DNA of 64,000 nt from an uncultured Gemmatimonadales bacterium. GTDB lineage: Bacteria; Gemmatimonadota; Gemmatimonadetes; Gemmatimonadales; GWC2-71-9. The stretch spans positions 1 to 64,000 of the forward strand of contig CAVYSW010000010.1 of the NCBI GenBank assembly GCA_963771275.1. Direction: 5' to 3'. Under the pieces are notes generated by a model that worked only from the letters and a program-made list of their open reading frames with translations, was not told where the DNA came from and did not search any database. Position 1 is the first letter of the stretch. The number at the start of each line of letters is the position of its first letter. The position numbers were made by a program, and so were the translations under genes. This document shows positions 3,004-59,362 of the stretch, in pieces.

Positions 3004-3232
3004 GCCCCGGCGTCGGGCCGCCTCCCTCGGAGGCACGCTCCGGCCCGGCCGCTACGGGGAGAGTCGGGCCGTCGCTCGTCGCTCAGTCGCAGTCTCATAG
3101 CAGGCGAATGCTGCTCCGATGCTTTGCTCCTTCGCTCAGTCCTCCTCCGGGAGGCGTCCCGCCGCCGGGGCTCGCGGCGAGGCTCAAGCGACAGGGCGAG
3201 CGCCGGAGCCGGCGGCGTCCCGGAGGAGGCCG
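3004..3232. repeat. Structured intergenic repeat: unit A (3004-3171) plus partial inverted unit B (3197-3232)
   Basis: Terminal stem GCCCCGGCG...CGCCGGGGC; shares GGCACGC, CGGGCCGTCGCT.GTCGCTCAGTCGCA, TGCTCCTTCGCTCA and CCTCCTCCGG with 13052-13218. Confidence 0.8.
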
Positions 3233-3320
3233 TCCAGGGCGCAGGCCACGAGCGAGATTGAGAGAATCCGCGCCTTGCCCGAGTGCCAGCGGAGGGTTGT
3301 CAAGCTGATAGCTTCTTTCC

Positions 3321-4436
3321 GTGAAAGTCGCGATCGATGCGCGGGCGCTCCTGCCTCCGGCGACCGGAATCGGCACGTACACGCGCGGCATCGCCGGCGC
3401 CCTCGCCTCGCGCGCCGGCGTCGAGGTGCGCCTCTTCACGCCGCGGCCGCTCCCCGAGTCCGAAGCCCTCGGTCCCTGGAGCGTGGGCGCGGACCGACGC
3501 AGCCCGGGGACGCTCTGGGTCCAGACGACCCTCCCCCGCCGCGCCCGGCAATGGGGGGCCGACGTGCTGCTCGCCGCCTTGACGATCGGCCCGGTGCGCG
3601 GCGGCCTGCCCTTCGTGTCCGTTGTTCATGACCTGACGGCGGTGACGCATCCGGAGTGGCATGCGCTTCGGACGCTCGTGGGCTTCGCGCCCCTGTGGGA
3701 CCGGACCGCCGAGAAGGCCGCCCGCTTCGTCTGCGTCTCGGAGGCGACCGCTCGGGAGTTGGAGCGTGCGCATCCGGAGACGCGGGCGCGGGTGCGCGTC
3801 GTCGCGAACGGCGTGGATCCCGATTTCGCCCCGGCACCGGACGGGCCGGCGCTCGCCGCGACGCGTCGAGCTACGCCGGCGGGCACCGGTACATCCTGTA
3901 CCTGGGCACGCTCGAGCCGCGCAAGAACGTCGAGACTCTCGTCGCCGCCTGCGACCTCCTCTGGAGCCGCGGCGCGCAGGCGCCCGATCTCGTGCTCGCC
4001 GGCGGGCGCCGGCTGGAAGACCTCCGCCCTGTTCGACCGGATCGCGCGCTCGCCGTTCCGGGAGAAGATCCACCTCGCGGGCTACGCCAACCGCGAGGCC
4101 GCCCGGGAGCTCTACCAGGCAGCCGACGTCTTCGTCTATCCCTCGCTCGAGGAAGGCTTCGGTCTTCCCGTCCTCGAGGCCATGGCCTGCGGGATCCCGG
4201 TGGTGGCGTCCACCGCAGAGGCTCTGCGCGAGGTCGCCGGCGGCGCCGCTCTCTTCGCGGAGCCTCGGGACTCCGCCGGGTTCGCGCGCGAGATCGAGCG
4301 CGCCCTGGAGGATCCCGCGACCCGCCGGCGCCTCGCGGCCGCGGGACCGGTGCGCGCGGCCGGGTTCTCCTGGGAGGCCGCCGGGCAGGCCACGGCCGCG
4401 GTTCTCGCGGAGGCCGCCGGGGAGACGCCGCCGTGA
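3321..4436 (+). CDS. Glycosyltransferase family 4 (GT-B), internal compensating indels
   Basis: VAIDAR N-terminus, VVHDL, YLGTLEPRKN (alternate frame), FVYPSLEEGFGLPVLEAMACG. Confidence 0.9.
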   Translation: MKVAIDARALLPPATGIGTYTRGIAGALASRAGVEVRLFTPRPLPESEALGPWSVGADRRSPGTLWVQTTLPRRARQWGADVLLAALTIGPVRGGLPFVSVVHDLTAVTHPEWHALRTLVGFAPLWDRTAEKAARFVCVSEATARELERAHPETRARVRVVANGVDPDFAPAPDGPALAATRRATPAGTGTSCTWARSSRARTSRLSSPPATSSGAAARRRPISCSPAGAGWKTSALFDRIARSPFREKIHLAGYANREAARELYQAADVFVYPSLEEGFGLPVLEAMACGIPVVASTAEALREVAGGAALFAEPRDSAGFAREIERALEDPATRRRLAAAGPVRAAGFSWEAAGQATAAVLAEAAGETPP

Positions 4437-11963: not shown

Positions 11964-12908
11964 TCACACCGGGACAGGCACCTGCGCGAGGATCTTCTTG
12001 ATCACCTCGCGTTCGTGGCCGCCCGAGCCGAAGCCGTCGGAGGAGAGAGAGAGGATGCGGTGCGCGAGCACGGGCTCGGCCACTGCCTGGACGTCGTCGG
12101 GAGTCGCGTAGTCGCGTCCCTGCATGAGCGCGTAGGCCTGCGTCGCGCGGAAGAGCGCCTGAGCGCCGCGCGTGGAGACGGGCAGACGCAGGTCCACGGC
12201 GCGGCGCGTGGCCCGCACGACGGAGTGCAGGTACTCGAGGAGCCGGTCGGAGACCGTCACGGATTCGACGTTTGTCCTGAAGCGCCAGGACTTCTTCCGG
12301 AGCGAGCACCGCCGGGATGGCAGCGAGCGCCTTCTCCGTGCCTCCGCGCCGCAGGAGCAGCTTCTCCTCCTCCTCCGTCGGGTATCCCAGCGAAAGCCGG
12401 AGAAAGAACCGGTCCATCTGGGACTCGGGGAGCGGGTACGTCCCGAGGTACTCGACGGGGTTCTGTGTCGCGACGACCATGAACGGCTGGGGCAGCGGCC
12501 GCCTCTCCGACTCGATCGTCACGGCGCCCTCGTTCATCGCCTCCAGCAGCGCGGACTGCGTCTTGGGAGTGGCGCGGTTGATCTCGTCGGCGAGCACGAT
12601 GTTGGCGAAGATCGGCCCGGCATGGAACTCGAAGCGCTCCGTCGGGAGTGTGGAAGACGGAGATCCCGAGCACGTCGGCCGGCAGCGTGTCGCTCGTGAA
12701 CTGGATCCGCCGGAATTCGAGCGACAGGCTGCGCGCCGAGCGCCCGCGCGAGCGTCGTCTTGCCCACGCCCGGCACGTCCTCGATCAGGATGTGCCCGCG
12801 GGAGAGAAGCGCCGTCAGGACCAGGTCCACGGCTCGGGGGTCGCCCCGGTAGATCAACCGGACGTTGTCCCTCAAGCGAGTCAGGCCGCCCGCGACCTTC
12901 GTGCTCAT
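11964..12908 (-). CDS. MoxR family AAA+ ATPase, frameshifted
   Basis: [64 protein letters not shown]. Confidence 0.92.
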
Positions 12909-13051
12909 AGAGTTGCTTTCATGACGATGAACATTCCATCCCGGGGGTTGACCGACCAGTCCCGTTCGTTGGGGAAACAGACATGGTAGGCGTGAATTCC
13001 CCCGTATTCAACGAGAAGACCTCTCGGTAGTGTCCTGATTTGATCAGTATC

Positions 13052-13412
13052 CCCCGGCGGCGGGCCCGCCTGCCTCGTCGGCACGCGCCGGCCCGGCCGG
13101 AACAGAGAGCTCCGGGCCGTCGCTGGTCGCTCAGTCGCATTCGCAGAGTGGCGACAGTCTTCTCACGTCATGCTCCTTCGCTCATCGCCTCCTCCGGCAG
13201 GCGGTCCCGCCGCCGGGGAATCGCATCTCGGCGCCACGGCACTGCGAGCCCCGGAGCCGGCGGCGTTTCCCGGAGTCGGTGATGGTGACGAGCATGGAAG
13301 AGCGCAACCGGCACCACGGTGCCTCTGCGAGGAACCCTCAGCGCCGGCCGGTTCCCATCGTTGCGGCAGGCCGGCGCGTGCCGACGCAGGGAAACGACGC
13401 CGGCTCCGGGGC
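13052..13412. repeat. Complete composite repeat: unit A (13052-13218), linker hairpin, inverted unit B (13246-13412)
   Basis: A matches 3004-3171; reverse complement of B matches 20350-20513 (GCTGAGGGTTCCTCGCAGA, CCATGCTCGTCACC, CGTCGGCACGCG, CCCCGGAGCC...GGCTCCGGGG). Confidence 0.85.
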
Positions 13413-13447
13413 GAGTTTTCCGCCGCGATCCCCTCGATCGCTTCGGT

Positions 13448-14452
13448 TCACGGATCGGGCTTCTTCGCGTCCTCGCGTTTGGCGAGGCGCTCGACGGCGG
13501 CTCGCAGCTCCCCTCGCGGTCGAACGGCAGGACGAGCACGCCGTTGGAAGTGACCACGATCGCAGTGTCGCGTACGCCGGGCGCGAGGACGGGCGCATCG
13601 GACAGGATGAGGTTGCCGCGGTCATCGGAGGCGCCTCGGATCTCGCGGACCGATCTCCAGCTCCCGACGTCGTTCCAGCCCGCCCGGAGCGGCACCGCCC
13701 GCACGCCGGCGGCTCTCTCCATGACCGCGTAGTCGATGGAGACGGACGGCAGTTGCGCGTAGGCGCGGCGCGCGGCCTCGTCGTCGCGTTCGCGCAGCCG
13801 GCGCCGATAGGCCTCCACCTGCTCCAGGAGAGGGCCCGCGACCCGGCGGGCCTCGGCCAGAAAGCGGGAGGGACGGAAGACGAAGATCCCGGCGTTCCAG
13901 AAGCAACCGGCGCGAACGAGCGCCTCCGTCTCCTCGCGAGCGGGCTTTTCGATGAACCGGACCACCTCCATTCCCTCTCCCGCCGCGACAGACGGAGAGC
14001 TCCAGGTATCCGTAATCGCTCTCCGGCCGGCTGGGCGGGACGGCGAGGACGACGGCGGACGCCGCTTCGGCGATCCGCGCCGCCTGGGCCAGCGACCGGC
14101 GAAAGGCCTCGTCGTCGGCGAACGTCTGGTCCGAAGGGATCGCGGCGGTCACGGGGTCGCCGTCCCGCTCGAACTGAAGGGCCGCGGAGAGGAGCGCCGG
14201 CCCCGAGTTGCGCCGGTGGGGCTCGAGGATCACCCGGTCCGCCGGCAGCGCCTTGAGCTCGGAGAGCACCAGGTCGGCGTGCCTCTCGGTCGTGGCCACG
14301 AAGATGTCCCCCGTCAGCGGAAAGACTCTCTCGTAAGCCTCGGCGAGCAGGCTCTTCTCCGACAGGAGCGGGAGGAACTGCTTGGGTCGCTCTTCGCTCG
14401 AGAGCGGCCACAACCGCGTCCCCCCTCCGCCGGCAAGCAGGAGCGCCCTCAC
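13448..14452 (-). CDS. manC: Mannose-1-phosphate guanylyltransferase, frameshifted
   Basis: LLAGGGGTRLWPLS...PKQFL, EPHRRNSGPA, YGYL, RFIEKP, WNAGIFVF, SIDYAVME, WNDVGSW. Confidence 0.88.
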
Positions 14453-17268: not shown

Positions 17269-20087
17269 ATGACCCGCCTCCTCGGCGCCCGCTTCCTCGC
17301 GGGCGCTCTTCTTTTGTGCGCAGCGGCTCCGGCCGCGGCCGACCGCATCTGGCTCGCCGGGGAGCGGGCGGACCGCGCCTGCCCCGCTTCCGGCCCCCCT
17401 TTTGGGATCGCTCCCTTGCCGCCCGCCGGTTCCGCGGGCTCCGCGGACAATTGCCTTGTGCGCGTGCCCGTGGCGGAATTCGGCGACGCGGCGCTCGAGG
17501 ACACCTCCGCGAGGATCGCGCGGCTGGGCTACACGCCGGCCGTGGACCTGGAGTTCGACGCCGTTCGCTTCCTCGCGAGCGGACTGACGGATGAGGACCG
17601 GAGGCTCCGTCTCGCCTATGCGGTCAAGAGGCTCTCTTCGGCGGCCCGAGGCGCCTCTCCCGCGAGACAGGTCCTCATCAGCGTCGTCAACGCCGGCCGG
17701 ACTTCAGCGGCGGAAGTGGAGAGGATCGCGCGGCTCCTTCTCGAGGAGGAGCTCGAGCCGTACGTGGACGCCGTTGCCCTGCCGCTTGAGCTCGTCTCTT
17801 CGCCGTCGTTCGATGCGACGCTCCTCTCGCGGCCGTGGGTCCGGACCTCCCTGCCGTCGCCGGGACAGGCCGTCAATGCGGTCCTGGCCGCGCTGGCAAA
17901 GGTCCCGGCCGCCGCCAACGTGGAAGTCGAGGGCGGCCTGTCGCAGGCTGATTGGGACGCACTCCGGAGACTCCAGCGATACTGGACGGAGAGCGTCTCG
18001 CGGGACCCGACGCCCACCGGCGCCCGGCGCGCCGACGGGACCGCCGTGGACGTTCGCCGTTTCTTCGACGCAAAGGCCTTTTCGCCGATCCTGCTCCTCC
18101 CGCAGGATGCGGCCGGCGCCACGGTGATCGAGCTCTCGGGGGGCCCCTACGCGAAGGCCTCGGTCGAGAACCTCGCGAGCGGAGCGAAGCGGGACTTCGA
18201 GCTACGCGGAGCCGGCACGCTGGAGCTCGACCTCTCGAAGGGGCCGCTCGCGGTCGTGCTCGAGCCGGCGGCGCGCTCGGGCGGCGAGACGAAGACGGCC
18301 GTCGAAGTCGGCGCCGCGCGCGGACTGACCGCCGAGGAGATCGTGGCGCGCGAGCGGGCCTGGGACGCCGGACAGCGCGAGCGGACGGGATCCTTCATCG
18401 CCGACATGAAGACTTCGCTGCGGTTCAAAATCGGCGAGGTCAACGAGACTTTCGACCTGACGATCCTCGGGCCCTATTTCTTTCGCCGGGGCGAGGCGCC
18501 CGACTGGGAGTGGGACGAGTTCTATCTGAATGGCGTGAAGTGGAAGGGCCGGACTCTCCCCAGGCTCCCGATCCTCCAGCCCGAGAAGGTCTCGGCCCTG
18601 CCGCTCGACATCCGGCTCTCCGAAGATTACGACTACACGCTCCACGGCGAAGACACGATCGCCGGCCGCCGCGCGTACCACATCCACTTCGTTCCGAAGA
18701 CCGCGACCGGAGAGAAACCGATCTACCGCGGCAGCGTGTGGATCGACAAGGAGACCTTCGCGCTGCTGCGCCGCGACTCCGTGCAATTGAACCTGAAGGG
18801 CGAGACGCTCTCGAGCGTCAAGAGAGAGTTCTACCGCCCGGTCCCCGGCTTTCCCGGCGTGGTTCTGCCCCTGGAGATCACAGGCGAACAGGTGTTCTCG
18901 ACGTCCGGGCGAACGACGGCCATCGAGCAGAGAGTCCTGATGGAGTCGGTCCGCGTCAACCCGCCGGACTTTGACGAGCGGCTCGCGGCCGCGCACGCCT
19001 CGCAGGCCCAGATCATCCGGGACACGGAGAAGGGAATGCGCTACCTCCTCCCCGATCCCGCCAGGCCCGGCAAGCGCATCGTCGAGGAAACGATCTCGAG
19101 GAAGAGCACTTTCGGCCTCCTCGGGGCGTTCTACGACGACTCGCTCGACTATCCGCTTCCCCTCGCGGGGATCCAGTACTTCGACTTCGACCTCTGGGGC
19201 AAGGGAAAACAGGTGTCCGTGTTCTTCGCCGGAGCCCTGCTCACGGCCAACTACACGGACCCGGCGCTCGCGGGAAGCCGATTCGATCTGGGAGCGGATC
19301 TCTTCGCGATCGCCGTCCCGTTCGGCGATGTCTCCTACCGCGACGGCAAGGAAGTCGCCTCGGAGAAGTTGAAGCATCTTCCGGCCGTTTTCCAGGTCAA
19401 CGTCGGCCATCCGCTCGGGCCCTACCTCAAGGCGTCGCTCGGGATCTTCACCAAGTGGGACAACTTTCAGCGTGACCAGGACACCGGGGGAAGCTTCATC
19501 ACGCCCGTGGACACGTTCACCGACGGCGCGGAGCTGAGGCTCGTCGCCAACATCTCCGGGTTCAATGCGATCGCGACCGGCGGCTACTTCCACCGCCGGA
19601 AGTGGGAGTTCTGGGGCGATCCGGCGACGACGGAATTCGATCCGAAGCAGCAGGATTATTGGAAATACTCGCTCTCGCTCTCGAAGGACCGTTACTTCTC
19701 CGGCTTCCGCAAGCTGCACCTCGGCCTGTCGTACCAGAGCGGCAGCGATCTCGACCGCTTCTCCAAGTACGAGTTCGGATCGTTCTCGGGAAACCCGGTA
19801 CGGGGCTACAAGTCCGGAAGCCTCCGCACGGACAGCGCCTTCGTCGCCAACATCTCCTACGGGCTCAACATCGAGAACATCATCCGCTTCGAAGGCTTCT
19901 ACGACCAGGCGGTGCTCAAGGACAGAAGTCGGGCTTCAACAACACGTACTTCTCGGGAGCCGGCCTGCTCGCCTCGCTCAACGGCCCCCTGCAGAACTCG
20001 ATTTTCCGCGCCGAGATCGGCATTCCGGTGGTCAGCCACGGCGTCCACGGCGTCGTCATCAACGTCCTCCTCCTCAAACTCTTCTAA
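17269..20087 (+). CDS. Large exported protein with LolA/MucB-like central domain and C-terminal outer-membrane beta-barrel; one frameshift near 19930
   Basis: Signal peptide; YTLHGEDTIAGRRAYHIHFVP...GSVWIDKETF; alternating barrel strands; ends LLKLF in ORF 19602-20087. Confidence 0.7.
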
Positions 20088-20325
20088 CGCGACCCGCGCC
20101 CTTGCGGACCCGGAAGGAGAAGACCTTCGCGTCGCGGCGCGTCTCAATGAGCTCGTGGCCACCTTCCTGGCAGAAGACCGCGACGTCTTCGACGGCGACG
20201 GGGTCGGTCGCGAGGAGCCGCGCGACGACCCCCTCGGGCCTCCCGGCGAACGCCTTTGCCAGCCGCAGCACGGGCAGCGGGCACAAAAGCCCTCTCGCGT
20301 CCACTTCGATGTCGTCCTCCGTCAT
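20074..20325 (-). CDS. TusA/SirA family sulfur carrier protein
   Basis: VDARGLLCPLPVL...LATDPVAVEDV..FC...GHEL. Confidence 0.88.
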   Translation of the reverse strand: MTEDDIEVDARGLLCPLPVLRLAKAFAGRPEGVVARLLATDPVAVEDVAVFCQEGGHELIETRRDAKVFSFRVRKGAGRVRRV

Positions 20326-20349
20326 GCTCTCCATGTTAGCGAGAAAGTC

Positions 20350-20567
20350 GCCCCGGAGCCGCCGTCGTTCCCTCGTCGGCACGCGGCGGCCGGCCTCCAA
20401 AGTCACTACCGACCGCCGCTGAGGGTTCCTCGCAGAAATACTGAGGCACAAGAGCCCGTGCTCCATGCTCGTCACCCATCAACTCCTCCGGGACGCCGCC
20501 GGCTCCGGGGCTCACGCCGTGACTTCAGTCCGTGTGAGAGCCCCGGCGGCGGGACCGCCTCCCGGAG
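20350..20567. repeat. Third composite repeat: unit B (20350-20513), linker, inverted unit A interrupted after ~30 nt by the IS110 element
   Basis: 20538-20567 GAGCCCCGGCGGCGGGACCGCCTCCCGGAG is the reverse complement of the unit A 3' end. Confidence 0.8.
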
Positions 20568-20654
20568 AGGGATGAGAAGGCCAATCTCCCCGCGCAGTAC
20601 CGTATGGTCTGCAAAAGGGATACGGGCTCGAGGCCCAGAGAGGAGAGATTGGCC

Positions 20655-21734
20655 GTGAGGAAGCTTACCAAGGGTTCGAGGCTGACGGCGGGTTTGGATG
20701 TGGGAGATCGGCAGAGCCGGTTGGTGGTGTTGGACGCGGAGGGTCAGGGGGTGGAAGAGGGACGAATGGCGACGCGGGAGCCGGCTTTGGCAGCGTTTTC
20801 CCGGATGTGAGCGGATGCGCATAGCTCTGGAGACGGGGACGCATTCGCCGTGGGTTTCTCGTCTGCTGATGGAATGCGGACATGAGGTAATCGTGGCCAA
20901 CTCGCGCAAGCTTCGGTTGATCTACGAGAATCGGCGCAAGGACGATCGGGTGGACGCGCTGTCTCTGGCGCGGCTGGCGCGAGTGGACCCACAGCTGCTT
21001 TCGCCTGTGGAGCATCGCGGGCCGGAAGTGCAAAAGGACCTGGCGCTCTTGCGCTCGCGCGACGCCCTGATCCGCGCTCGCACTCAGCTGATCAATCACG
21101 CTCGGGGAGCGGTGAAGTCCCTGGGACACAGGCTGCCCTCTGCCTCGAGCCGGGCGTTCCCAAAGAGGGTCCTCGAGAACGATGCCGGAGTCTGTTCAAC
21201 CGGCGTTGCTGCCGGTTCTGGAGATCGTCACTTCCCTCAACGATCAGATCAAAGTTCTGGACCGCAAGGTGGAGACATTGTGCCGGGAGAGCTATCCGGA
21301 GACGAAGCTTCTTCGGCAGGTGACGGGAGTCGGGCCGATCACTGCCCTGGGCTATGTGCTGATCCTCGAGCAGCCGGCTGGATTCGCGAGCAGCTCGCGC
21401 GGTGGGGCCCTATCTCGGGCTGGTTCCCGGAAGAAAGCAGTCGGGAGACTCGGACCCTCAGATGCGAATCACCAAGGAAGGGGACTCGTTGCTGAGGCGA
21501 TTGATGGTCAACTCGGCTCACTACATCCTCGGGCCGTTCGGGCCGGACTCGGACCTGCGTCGCTTCGGACTGAAAATAGCCCGGCGCGGCGGCAAGAATG
21601 CCAAGAAGAGAGCCGTGATCGCCGTGGCGCGCAAACTGGCGGTGCTGCTCCATCACCTCTGGCGTTGCGCGGAGGTCTACGACCCTCTCTACCAGGAAAA
21701 CCGGAAAGCCAGCCGTCGCGGGAAAGCCGCATAA
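20655..21734 (+). CDS. IS110 family transposase/recombinase (DEDD RuvC-like + Tnp20), with indels
   Basis: AGLDVG, IALETG, RKDDRVDA, QVTGVGPITA, YLGLVPGRKQSGD, ITKEGD, AVIAVARKLAVLL. Confidence 0.95.
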
Positions 21735-21935
21735 AAATCGGAAAGTCACTCACCCTGCTAAGGAAAAGACGGACGAGCCTTGAGCCACACGCAACCCAGG
21801 AAGAGAGACGAGTCCATCGCCCAGTCCCGGCGACTGCGCATCGCCTCCAGTTCCGTCTGGAGCTCCCAAGCTCCACCGAGAACGTCCCGGAGATTGCAGC
21901 GCCCGACTGGATGGACCCCAGCATGCATCGGCCCG
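21735..21935 (+). ncRNA. Putative IS110/IS1111 bridge (seek) RNA, target-binding loop part; truncated
   Basis: CATCGCCTCC (21839-21848) and CGTCCCGGAG (21883-21892) match the two halves of the target on opposite strands, enclosed by a CTGC/GCAG stem with an inner CTCCAG/CTGGAG hairpin. Confidence 0.65.
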
Positions 21936-21968
21936 TGGTCGCGGGACGGCGTGACGACGCGGCGCCGC

Positions 21969-23354
21969 TCACGGCGGGCCGCCGGCGCTGTCGCGCGTGA
22001 AGATCCAGTACGGCATGCCGAGGGTCCGGCCGATCGTTTCCGCCTCGTCCCGGGACGCGTACGGCCCGACGACCACGCGGTACATCTCGTCCGCTGTGGT
22101 CGGCGGCAGGACGCTGGCGCGCACGCCGGCGCTCCGGAGGTCGCGTGCCAGGCCGTCCGCCCACTGCGCGTTGGAGGTGCTGCTCACCTGCAGGTAGATC
22201 TCCCGGCCCACCGCCGCCGCCGCCGCCGGCCCGGGCGCCGGGCGCGCCGCCAGCTGCAGCGCCGGCCGCCGCGGATCCCACGGCACAATCAGCCAGCGGT
22301 CAGCCGCCCCGTCGCGCACCCGCCCGCGCTCCTTGCCGTCGTCCGGGCCGAGCGCCACGACGTCCGCCCCACGGCGGACCAGCAGCGTGCCGTCCGGCCC
22401 GGTCGCCGGCAGATCGTCCTGCCAGGAGCCCGGCACCACCCGGGCGGTGTCGCCGCCCAGCGGGATGAGCAGCGCGGCGTCGTCGGTCCGACCCAGCAGG
22501 AAGTGCCCGAACGGATCGGCGCGCAGCGCCGTCACCGGTGCGGCCGTCTCGATCCTCCCGACTCGGGTCAGCTCGAACCGGTCGAATACTTCGATGTCGG
22601 GCGCGTCCGTGGCGACGTAGAGGCGATGGCCCGACGCCGAGAACGTCACCGCCAGCGGGGCACCGCGGAGCCGGAGGCGCTGCGGCGGCCCGCCGCGCTC
22701 GAGGTCGACCACCGTCACGGCCGAATCGGTCACCACCGCGGCGACGTCGCCCCACGGCGCCACGACGAGCTGCCCCGCAGGCACGGGTCGCCGGCCGGCG
22801 AGCGCGCCCGCCGACGCCGTGTACAGGGCCTGCGCGCCTGACTCGGCCACCGCCACCAGGCCGCGCCCTCCCGTCGTGCCCCACACGCCGGCGAGCGTGG
22901 TGCCCTGGGGCGCCCGCCCCAGCGGCGCGAGCCGGCGCGCGTCGAACCGGTCGGCGCTCTGATCGAGGTGCCCCACCAGCACGCCCCCGGTGGGCCCGAG
23001 CGTGGCGAACGTCACCCCCGTGTCGGCCGTCCGGGCGCGTCCCGACGCGAGGTCGAGCGCGAGCAGCTGGCGGCCGGGCGACACCACGTAGACGGCGTCC
23101 TCGTCCACCGCGTAGCCCACCACGCGCCCCGCCACGAGCCCCGGCGTGTCGAACCGCCACGCCACGGCGTCGAGGTCCGGCAGCCGGTACAGCCGCACGT
23201 CCGCGCCGCGGCGGGCCGCAAACCGGAGGGCGACGGCGCCGGCGTCGTCGGGGGCCCGCGTGGCGACCGCCTCGCGCAGCTGCCTGGTTTCGGGGGAGGT
23301 GCCGCACGCGGAGGTCAGCAGCAGCAGGGCGGCGATCGAGCGGCCGTTCAGCAC
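21969..23354 (-). CDS. Lipoprotein with beta-propeller-like region and C-terminal SPOR domain
   Basis: Lipobox LTSAC; C-terminal IYLQVSS...YRVVVGPYASRDEAE. Confidence 0.8.
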   Translation of the reverse strand: MLNGRSIAALLLLTSACGTSPETRQLREAVATRAPDDAGAVALRFAARRGADVRLYRLPDLDAVAWRFDTPGLVAGRVVGYAVDEDAVYVVSPGRQLLALDLASGRARTADTGVTFATLGPTGGVLVGHLDQSADRFDARRLAPLGRAPQGTTLAGVWGTTGGRGLVAVAESGAQALYTASAGALAGRRPVPAGQLVVAPWGDVAAVVTDSAVTVVDLERGGPPQRLRLRGAPLAVTFSASGHRLYVATDAPDIEVFDRFELTRVGRIETAAPVTALRADPFGHFLLGRTDDAALLIPLGGDTARVVPGSWQDDLPATGPDGTLLVRRGADVVALGPDDGKERGRVRDGAADRWLIVPWDPRRPALQLAARPAPGPAAAAAVGREIYLQVSSTSNAQWADGLARDLRSAGVRASVLPPTTADEMYRVVVGPYASRDEAETIGRTLGMPYWIFTRDSAGGPP

Positions 23355-33541: not shown

Positions 33542-33551
33542 TCCCCCCCCA

Positions 33552-33623
33552 TTGCCCCCCCAGGATTCGAACCTGGATTCCCGGAGCCAAAGTCCGGTGT
33601 CCTAGCCATTGGACGAGAGGGCA
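33552..33623 (-). tRNA. tRNA-Gln(TTG)
   Basis: Full cloverleaf: TGCCCTC/GGGGGCA acceptor, CCGGA-CTTTGGC-TCCGG anticodon arm, CCAGG-TTCGAAT-CCTGG T arm; CCA not encoded. Confidence 0.96.
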
Positions 33624-33738
33624 GCGTATGAGGCATCAATGTAAGGCTGGATCGGGAATCGTGCAGCGTGCAGCGCCGGAGCGAGCCGTGCACGCCGTGG
33701 TGGTGATTGCGGCGACCCGTTGACCTGTCCCTCCCAGG

Positions 33739-35260: not shown

Positions 35261-35286
35261 GACTCCTCCCGACGGTGTCCCCCGCA

Positions 35287-35357
35287 TTGCCCCCCCGGGA
35301 TTCGAACCTGCATTCCCGGATCCAAAGTCCGGTGTCCTGCCGTTGGACGAGAGGGCA
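35287..35357 (-). tRNA. tRNA-Gln(TTG), second copy with two T-stem mismatches (possible pseudo-tRNA)
   Basis: Same acceptor and anticodon stems as 33552-33623; T stem GCAGG/CCCGG. Confidence 0.8.
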
Positions 35358-35700
35358 GTGTCCGAAAGCTCCAATTTAGGGTGGGATCGGGATTCGTGCA
35401 GCGTGCAGCGGGTAGCGTGCCGCGGCCGTCCCGGGACTTCTCTAGCCATCCCCCCGACCGATACCTATACTACCGAGCGCGGGAGGCAAACCACGGGGGG
35501 GCATGTGCCGTCACCCTGGGCAGCCTCGAGGCTAAAACTCACGCACCGCCGTTCCCTCGCTCCACGCGCGGGACCTGCTTGCCGCCGTATCGGCGCCGAG
35601 GCGTTCCCCCGGGCCATCCAACTCGCCCCCCCCTTACACTCTGCCATCCCGGCTCAATACGGCCGGCTCAACCACCGGAGCGCGGGCGCCATCGAGCCGT

Positions 35701-35753
35701 CGGTCATCGGCCAACGGCCAACCGCCAACGGCCAACGGCTAACGGCCAACGGC
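35701..35753. repeat. Heptamer tandem repeat (CGGCCAA)n
   Basis: About 7 imperfect units; reverse complement of the array at 59253-59315. Confidence 0.85.
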
Positions 35754-57630: not shown

Positions 57631-57706
57631 GCGTCCTCCACGGGGGGATGGGTTGCGCTGGAACGCACTAGGATAGTCCGCGGGCGCGAGGGGCGCTATG
57701 GGCGAG

Positions 57707-57790
57707 CGTCGTTCGCCGTTCGCCGTTCGCCGTTTGCCGTGAGCCGTGACCGGAACGCGGCACGTCGGCCATCGGCTATCGGCTATCGCC
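57707..57790. repeat. Heptamer tandem repeats
   Basis: (CGTTCGC)-like x5-6 followed by (TCGGCTA)-like x3-4. Confidence 0.75.
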
Positions 57791-59252: not shown

Positions 59253-59362
59253 CCGTCAGCCGTTAGCCGTTGGCCGTTAGCCGTTAGCCGTTGCCCGATA
59301 GCCGTTGGCCGATAGTCGACACAAAGGCAGTCCGCTGCACGCTGCACGCTAAACGCTGCACG
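59253..59362. repeat. Heptamer tandem repeats (CCGTTAG)n and (CGCTGCA)n
   Basis: About 9 units at 59253-59315 and 4 units at 59333-59362. Confidence 0.85.

Follow-up and report, generated by a model that had tools for sequence, protein, structure and literature searches.

The window analysed here, a stretch of 64,000 nucleotides at the start of a contig (CAVYSW010000010.1, assembly GCA_963771275.1) of an uncultured Gemmatimonadales bacterium, contains at positions 20568-21927 of the plus strand the initial ~1360 bp of an element of the IS110 family, IS1111 type. Three parts of this element are found in the window: a left subterminal repeat, a DEDD transposase gene and a non-coding RNA module located 3' of the gene. 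Three full-length relatives, designated L146, L153 and L156, measure 1541, 1581 and 1535 bp and are respectively 91.2%, 79.5% and 90.7% identical to window 20568-21927; their gene is intact, with open frames of 388-389 aa. The RNA-guided (bridge/seek RNA) mechanism of the IS1111 type is already understood, and for this genome the element is ordinary mobile DNA. Elsewhere in the window, two tRNA genes (33544-33675 and 35279-35410), 1735 bases apart, share ~130 bases of flanking sequence (87-93% alike). Arrays of 7-base units (CCGTTAG / CCGTTGG and complement) are located at 35696-35753, 57702-57746 and 59253-59320, and are partly inverted copies of one another.

The left end of the element (20568-20580) is composed of a terminal extension, AGGG, and of a 9-bp subterminal inverted repeat, ATGAGAAGG (20572-20580). 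This extension reads ATGGG in all close relatives, a T being therefore missing from the window. Usually preceded by ATGGG, ATGAGAAGG constitutes the conserved left end of most relatives whatever their target, and the conserved right end is CCTTCTCAT followed by GGAAG. A motif scan did not detect this right repeat in the window; it is present in 69 of the 85 RNA-model matches described below and in L146, L153 and L156. The succession of GACTGCG, a variable loop and GCAGC is common to all nine relatives shown (L005-L013), most of which, when readable to both ends, also carry ATGAGAAGG on the left and CCTTCTCAT on the right, L013 having no such right end. The left end is short (87 bp, 20568-20654) and the non-coding region 3' of the transposase gene is long (193 bp in the window, ~370 bp in full-length L146), as in the IS1111 group. 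This group is marked by inverted repeats of 7-17 bp separated from the flanks by short terminal extensions. The 9-bp repeats (in the window on the left only, in relatives at both ends), the short left end and the long 3' non-coding region are together those of the IS1111 type of the literature. A leader stem, GGCCAATCTC / GAGATTGGCC, can also be read from the sequence at 20579-20654 (plus strand), where it encloses the ribosome-binding region just 5' of the GTG start at 20655. Its pairing is kept in relatives by compensating letters, for instance GGTCCGACCTCC / GGAGGTCGGACC in L006, and such a stem may block translation from outside transcripts.

The transposase gene (20655-21734, plus strand) is split into four frame pieces as assembled. 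The N-terminal DEDD/RuvC-like domain (DEDD_Tnp_IS110, PF01548) is recognized in piece P0002 (E 2.9e-12, 47.1 bits for a cut-off of 29) and weakly in P0001 (17.5 bits). The C-terminal Transposase_20 domain (PF02371) is found in P0004 with 37.6 bits (cut-off 21.3), and the G--P----SG motif of the family appears as GLVPGRKQSG. Relative L009 reaches 209.7 bits with the NF033542 model ('IS110 family RNA-guided transposase'), well above its whole-protein cut-off of 140; in the window, where frame breaks divide the gene, the separate pieces reach no more than 71.4 and 65.6 bits. In a six-frame search covering 401 genomes of the phylum, 63 contain matches, including the source genome itself (G000), with a nearer group at 55-72% identity; two unpublished genomes among those listed, G057 and G156, support none of the conclusions drawn here. 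Scanning of a genome collection added 80 further loci, many of them in records titled Acidobacteriota, and ~5500 of its stored stretches are estimated to contain the peptide patterns of the search. The clade comes chiefly from metagenome-assembled genomes of soil and sediment, and Acidobacteriota figures in the titles of many. Among plasmid-borne relatives, the 15 best matches, which include ISAzs32, display 31-35% protein identity over full-length alignments. The source genome also carries a second, distant IS110-family transposase gene (G000:C3:847400-847708), with 27% identity to the C-terminal piece and an open frame of 382 aa.

As assembled, the window copy cannot act, its frame being broken and its distal end missing. 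Likeness to the full-length relatives ends at a break point (21925-21927), the right side of which is the region upstream of the smc start. The copy is thus devoid of a donor loop, a right end and a right flank. The distal part could not be located elsewhere: an nhmmer search of the assembly with 64 distal non-coding regions returned nothing at E up to 10, motif scans of the assembly for the right end and donor loop gave chance-level matches only, far from the element, and no contig from four public runs spans the joint at 21927. Comparison with L146, L156, L153 and the copy from sequencing run X2 reveals five window-specific indels, namely the T missing at 20568, a GC missing near 20783-20788 and extra bases at 21178, 21395 and 21756. 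Three of these, the absent GC and the additional bases at 21178 and 21395, lie within the gene and coincide with its three frame breaks. A 151-base contig of run X1, which may be the source sample, is identical to 21767-21917, indicating that this stretch was read correctly.

The frame breaks and the truncation are probably artefacts of a poor or chimeric contig end. In the contig of the window (C10), codon-phase switches amount to 4.79 per kb over positions 1-21925 versus 1.71 over the next 42 kb (21926-64000), the genome-wide value being about 2.5; they are also raised over the initial 20 kb of C3, of C9 and, to a lesser extent, of C6. Several genes within window 1-16 kb are split across frames: murB (in three pieces), pgpA, moxR, an NTP transferase, a sugar transferase and DUF58. 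The rpoB and smc genes located elsewhere in the assembly are whole. From position 21926 rightwards, the window is matched with 0 differences by two public metagenome contigs (one of 24.5 kb), which lead leftwards into the end of C7. This contig end (26888-26908) stops at the start codon of the only smc gene of the genome; in the window, its place to the left of 21926 is taken by the insertion sequence. On C6 are found additional recA and murB genes, both split by a frame break (C6:12459-13419 and C6:66656-67524), and the bin may hold pieces of two related organisms.

The rival explanation is that of a truly dead relic, in which the gene has real frameshifts and a deletion or rearrangement cost the element its final ~180 bp (donor loop and right repeat) and the target repeat its right half, fusing what remained to the region upstream of smc. 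It draws on the specificity of the five indels to the window, on the sharpness of the end at 21927, on the absence of the distal part from the entire assembly and on the stretch confirmed by run X1. We nevertheless consider it possible but rather doubtful in view of the similar frame breaks in the housekeeping genes of the preceding 16 kb, the raised frequency of codon-phase switches, the junction of the sequence from 21926 with the end of C7 and the duplicated recA and murB. Decay is not distinguishable from assembly error at such a low-quality, possibly chimeric contig end, and poor assembly of this end is the most likely cause of the missing donor part and right end and of the out-of-frame gene. 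The first 22 kb of the contig are in consequence not trustworthy base for base, and the copy numbers given below (one element, three repeats) are lower bounds.

The 3' non-coding region was modelled from ten aligned relatives. The alignment is centred on GGCGACTGCG, a variable loop and (A)TTGCAGCGCC ... GGAC.CCAGCATGCACC, and RNAalifold predicts for the ten regions a loop closed by this stem with a small hairpin in its middle. The resulting covariance model was then run on 90 sources and returned 85 matches in 84 of them, always just 3' of the gene, the sources without a match being L064, L091, L093, L094, L097 and L105. The sole match within the window (21812-21929, plus strand, 85.5 bits) corresponds to the target-binding part of a bridge/seek RNA; it folds at -52.5 kcal/mol (z -5.7), with the same closing stem as in the family. 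The 5' strand of this stem, GGCG-A-CTGCG (21829-21838), pairs with 21896-21903 (GCAGCGCC), and 97.1% and 99.7% of the cells are paired in the corresponding helices 2 and 3. Over 76 distinct rows, 91.1% of cells are paired and both sides have changed in 12 of the 16 pairs, figures somewhat biased towards the structure since the alignment was fitted to the covariance model. The observed values were reached in none of 500 shuffles, and partners slid along the alignment are 27-41% paired. A search of Rfam at E up to 1 gave 0 matches in 20000-22500, the only gathering-score matches in the whole window being three tRNAs, and a search of public sequencing runs for the stretch listed no RNA run containing it and none with half of its words. 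In L006, a second, partial copy of the RNA module (L006:2003-2095, 31.1 bits) lies beyond the right end; it may have arisen by insertion, in tandem or nested, at the guide sequence of the element itself.

An earlier reading of the window from its sequence (hereafter the original prediction) had proposed an IS110/IS1111 element with its RNA downstream of the transposase gene, and the domains, the architecture and the RNA model all bear this out. The CTGC/GCAG stem which it described is part of the closing stem, CTGC at 21835-21838 pairing with GCAG at 21896-21899. The CTCCAG/CTGGAG hairpin that it placed inside the loop can form, but is used neither by the minimum-free-energy fold nor by the family alignment, and would bury half of the 5' guide. 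The conserved inner hairpin (21850-21883, plus strand) is instead closed by GTTC (21850-21853) and GAAC (21880-21883), with an inner stem GGAGC (21859-21863) / GCTCC (21870-21874). In helix 4 of this hairpin, both sides have changed in all 4 pairs.

Two segments of the loop flank this hairpin. We defined the 5' guide as the 12 bases following ACTGCG, i.e. CATCGCCTCCAG at 21839-21850, and the 3' guide as the 12 bases preceding GCAG, i.e. GTCCCGGAGATT at 21884-21895 (both on the plus strand). The reverse complement of the former, CTG-GAGGCGATG, reads the right flank GAGGCGATG; the latter reproduces the top-strand sequence of the left flank TCCCGGAG together with the base that opens the element, and would therefore pair with the bottom strand. 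The strings named at the outset, CATCGCCTCC (21839-21848) and CGTCCCGGAG (21883-21892), are indeed located in the loop. The same rule could be followed throughout the family, in which the left junction reads N6-AG/ATGGG-ATGAGAAGG, N6-AG being read by the 3' guide, and the right junction reads CCTTCTCAT-GGAAG/flank, the reverse complement of the 5' guide reading C-N-(A/G)-G and then the flank. The top-strand match is thus 5' and the bottom-strand match 3', the two overlapping at the insertion point as is typical of the IS1111 group, and the one-guide-per-strand arrangement of the original prediction agrees with that published for IS1111 seekRNAs.

The correspondence between guides and flanks was scored over 8 flank bases, the ends of the elements being located by their inverted repeats with at most 1 mismatch and an extension length of 3-7 bases being allowed. 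From the 85 model matches, 18 left and 16 right junctions were left out for want of a recognisable end repeat or of sufficient flank, as were one right-side duplicate and the second match in L006. At least 6 of 8 bases agree between the 3' guide and the left flank at 55 of 67 own junctions, versus 59 of 3156 cross-pairings with unlike guides, and between the 5' guide and the right flank at 49 of 68 own junctions, versus 158 of 3722 cross-pairings. With a single row per distinct guide, the counts are 35/44 versus 95/1892 on the left and 32/42 versus 91/1722 on the right. The exceptions scoring below 6 (12 of 67 on the left, 19 of 68 on the right) include the left junction of L005 (4/8) as well as L084 and L055, which score 3. 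The left junction of the window matches its 3' guide at 8/8 with the guide positions of the family model. In several genomes, copies with one guide pair are found at different places sharing the predicted site, for example four in one record at (G)CTAG/GTGGCCTG. The loop segments themselves differ among relatives, with 54 and 56 distinct 8-mers in the 85 matches. The segments singled out as target guides thus vary among relatives and track their own flanks; being altered in relatives with other targets, they are no invariant scaffold. A possible role of the last three bases of the 3' guide in reading the left end was rejected: the agreement is observed in several relatives (L011, L088) and is absent from a large Acidobacteriota group (GTA versus ATG).

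The two guides of the window, taken together, specify TCCCGGAG/GAGGCGATG as judged by their pairing potential. The left half, TCCCGGAG, lies directly left of the element at 20560-20567 (plus strand), as originally read, and ends in the AG common to the junctions of the family. The right junction being missing from the window, the 5' guide is not checkable in place and relies on the repeat copy at 13183 and on the relatives. The insertion site belongs to an intergenic repeat, of which three copies are present in the assembly, all lying within 21 kb in the window. Copy 3, interrupted by the element (left part 20339-20567, minus strand), is homologous to 13192-13418 and 3145-3228, with 77% and 82% identity to the other two copies. 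Copy 2 contains the uninterrupted target at 13183-13199 (minus strand), the reverse complement of which is TGCCGGAG/GAGGCGATG with 1 mismatch in 17; CATCGCCTCC occupies 13183-13192 there, as had been noted. The homologous site of copy 1 (3145-3165, minus strand) reads TCCCGGAG/GAGGACTGAG, the left half being exact and the right half a partial fit. Each copy precedes a gene: a glycosyltransferase at 3321, an open frame after 13430 and, for copy 3, a TusA gene identified by a Pfam match (20074-20475, minus strand). Within a copy, inverted GC-rich arms of ~23 bp form two pairs, with ~120 bases between the arms (13052-13074 and 13196-13218, then 13248-13271 and 13389-13412, for instance), and the insertion site is the inner foot of one long GC-rich arm. 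A comparison of the repeat at 12900-13600 with Rfam returned no relevant family, only one meaningless miRNA row (E 0.58).

In the genome of the organism, no site but the repeat copy at 13183 comes within 1 mismatch of the 17-mer TCCCGGAG+GAGGCGATG; a site in repeat unit B at 20477 displays 2 mismatches in 17. Unit B contains CGTCCCGGAG at 3216-3225 and, inverted, at 20486-20495, as first reported, and the 3' guide fits both places at 10/10. The 5' guide, compared by eye, fits partially (6/9 at 3226-3234). The proposed aim at a motif common to both repeat units is consequently not well supported, the 5' guide fitting only in part, and all insertions seen are in unit A. The proposed host repeat family amounts, in this assembly, to the three clustered copies mentioned above. 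Mapping of the element in the source genome, suggested with the original prediction, gave the single copy of the window. An empty orthologous site was sought in 40 relatives, including six same-genus genomes that are 71-89% complete, and none shows the target site; short matches of 30-41 bases were obtained in four of the 40, three in the coding part of TusA and one (G154) in the repeat. A derivation of repeat copies 1 and 2 from the element by deletion was also considered and rejected: 21812-21929 is the only match of the RNA model in the window, and the order of motifs is not colinear.

The right half of the target, GAGGC-GATGAG-CG-AAGG (GAGGCGATGAGCGAAGG; window 13166-13182, reverse strand), resembles the left end of the element, ATGG-GATGAG-AAGG (ATGGGATGAGAAGG). 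This likeness to 20568-20580 occurs at a nearly equal offset from the joint and is absent from the targets of other family members; as a result, a right junction carrying the insertion (CCTTCTCATGGAAG/GAGGCGATGAGCGAAGG) has the appearance of the junction formed in the circle. The repeat could accordingly be the descendant of an old left end, or a partner usable as donor, the transposase and RNA then being able to move or rearrange repeats, an idea which we regard as improbable. If it were true, the repeats would be a non-autonomous companion of the element and not a passive landing site.

The full-length relatives were retrieved by searching the metagenome collection with the 19-mer at window 21832-21850, which covers part of the stem and the 5' guide. 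It is present in 28 stretches, 25 of which are unrelated sequence, the remaining three being L146, L153 (reverse strand) and L156. Their left junction reads ...GGGACCGCCTCCCGGAG/ATGGGATGAGAAGG (GGGTCC in L153), the left side being also readable as ...CCTCCCGGAG/ATGGG ATGAGAAGG in all three, and the right junction reads CCTTCTCATGGAAG/GAGGCGATGAGCGAAGGAGCA... in L146 and L153, with GAGGCGATGAGCG as right flank; the L156 stretch stops after GAGG. These flanks are members of the repeat family represented by three copies in the window, that on the left of L146 resembling the window's own locus; the left flanks of L153 and L156 differ further out, hence at least two or three separate repeat copies have been hit. 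The copy in run X2, mostly 90-95% alike or lower, has the same left junction as the window. L146, L153, L156 and X2 have an A where the 3' guide of the window has a T, and their guides thus match the same flank at 7/8. The target reconstructed beforehand as TCCCGGAG/GAGGCGATG is the actual insertion site of the three full-length relatives, as far as the shorter right flank of L156 extends (GAGG), and copies sharing the 5' guide, which might have been scattered over unrelated sites, all sit at this one.

The relatives also provide the donor side that the window copy lacks. Past AGCATGCACC, their RNA region consists of a hairpin, GAGTGCG-AATGGAAGC, a variable hairpin, a conserved TTGACA and the right repeat. 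The 7 bases following GTGCG are the same as the 7 closing the element in 29 out of 36 distinct combinations containing GTGCG (it was not found in two further loci, L074 and L090), and the matching forms include the four variants ATAGAAG, ATGGGAG, ATGGAGG and ATGGCAG. The segment typified by ATGGAAG, which repeats the final bases of the right end, thus covaries with this end and fits a putative donor-reading guide like that drawn for bridge RNAs of the IS1111 group. A second donor guide was sought in the relatives and not found, one of the two being therefore identified. The conserved TTGACA lies next to the right repeat on its inner side, ~20 bases from the right end. In other IS110-family elements, the -35 half of a promoter is completed at the circle junction, and by analogy this TTGACA could be such a half.

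Two further explanations deserve consideration. The guide matches could be due to chance, or the segments could be an invariant RNA scaffold without any influence on target choice: the guides are short, the genome contains 324 occurrences of TCCCGGAG, in line with composition, and most metagenome matches to the 19-mer are unrelated sequence. The diversity of the loop segments, the agreement with their own flanks far above the cross-pairing controls and the occupation of the same site by three relatives with the same 5' guide make this highly improbable. An early alternative with boundaries at 20581-21918 and insertion at GAAGG/AGCA, founded on the resemblance of 20568-20580 and 21919-21930 to a continuation of the repeat (GAGGCGATGAGCGAAGG AGCATG), with AGGGATGAGAAGG (the 13 bases after 20567) and AGCATGCATCGG (from 21919) similar to repeat copies 1 and 2 in an ungapped comparison by eye, can be dismissed, because ATGAGAAGG, after ATGGG in most cases, is conserved as the left end in the majority of relatives whatever their target, AGCATGCAC lies inside the RNA region and is conserved there among the aligned relatives, and the joints of the full-length relatives lie at 20567/20568 and after CCTTCTCATGGAAG.

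The window therefore very probably holds a copy of an IS1111-type element whose bridge/seek RNA guides, as deduced from base complementarity, specify its own insertion site. The proposed mechanism can be briefly summarized as follows. The 3' non-coding region encodes the target-binding module of a bridge/seek RNA, in which the conserved stem (GGCGACTGC / GCAGCGCC) closes an internal loop formed by the 5' guide, a structural hairpin and the 3' guide. The 3' guide is predicted to pair with the bottom strand left of the crossover, and the 5' guide, complementary to the top strand right of it, would complete the recognition; jointly, they would select the site at the inner foot of the GC-rich stem in the structured intergenic repeat. 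A second guide located further 3' (ATGGAAG) would read the donor. Recombination between the target site and the joined ends of the excised circle would then place the element at the site. By analogy with the published work on ISEc11, ISPa11, ISKpn4 and IS621, the RNA would be produced, bind the transposase and direct this recombination.

The anatomy of the element and the guide rule match those published for IS1111-type seekRNAs and bridge RNAs, as far as can be judged from sequence. In the seekRNA study, the RNA is short, with the match to the top strand placed 5' of that to the bottom strand, and the two overlap in the target (Siddiquee et al., Nat Commun 2024, PMC11187229). The ISEc11, ISPa11 and ISKpn4 elements share with the present one a DEDD transposase with the GL-P----SG motif, subterminal inverted repeats, a long non-coding region 3' of the gene and relatives which keep the stem and change the matches when their targets differ (PMC11187229). 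This likeness is one of architecture, and the long inner hairpin of the window (34 nt) is unlike theirs. In the bridge RNA study, one loop of the IS110-family RNA reads the target and a second one the joined donor ends (Durrant et al., Nature 2024, PMC11208160). The element resembles IS621 in this two-loop logic, given the covariation of its donor-type guide with the right end, but differs in its 3' RNA and 9-bp repeat, the RNA of IS621 being in the left end with repeats of 2-3 bp (PMC11208160). For the IS1111 group, the same paper predicts that the RNA lies in the right end, that the left end is short and that the subterminal repeats are long, which is the layout found here. ISAzs32, one of the 'IS110 family transposase' genes that gave the best matches in the plasmid collection, is among six elements whose bridge RNA is drawn in that paper (PMC11208160).

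Insertion into structured repeats has precedents within the family. Elements of the IS110 family targeting REP sequences were reportedly described by Tobes and Pareja in 2006. The REP-targeting ISPpu9 is likewise reported to insert at a fixed position in a palindromic intergenic repeat (PMC12288879). The repeat described here differs from these targets by its much greater length, with two ~23-bp GC-rich stems and ~120-nt loops, and by its three copies in the assembly instead of hundreds.

The guide code of an IS1111-type element can thus be read from raw sequence and checked against the flanks. The relatives collected here define a large clade, distant from the named elements of plasmid records, and within it a simple rule of position holds for both guides. 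Such natural pairs of guides and targets are raw material for the choice of programmable recombinases.
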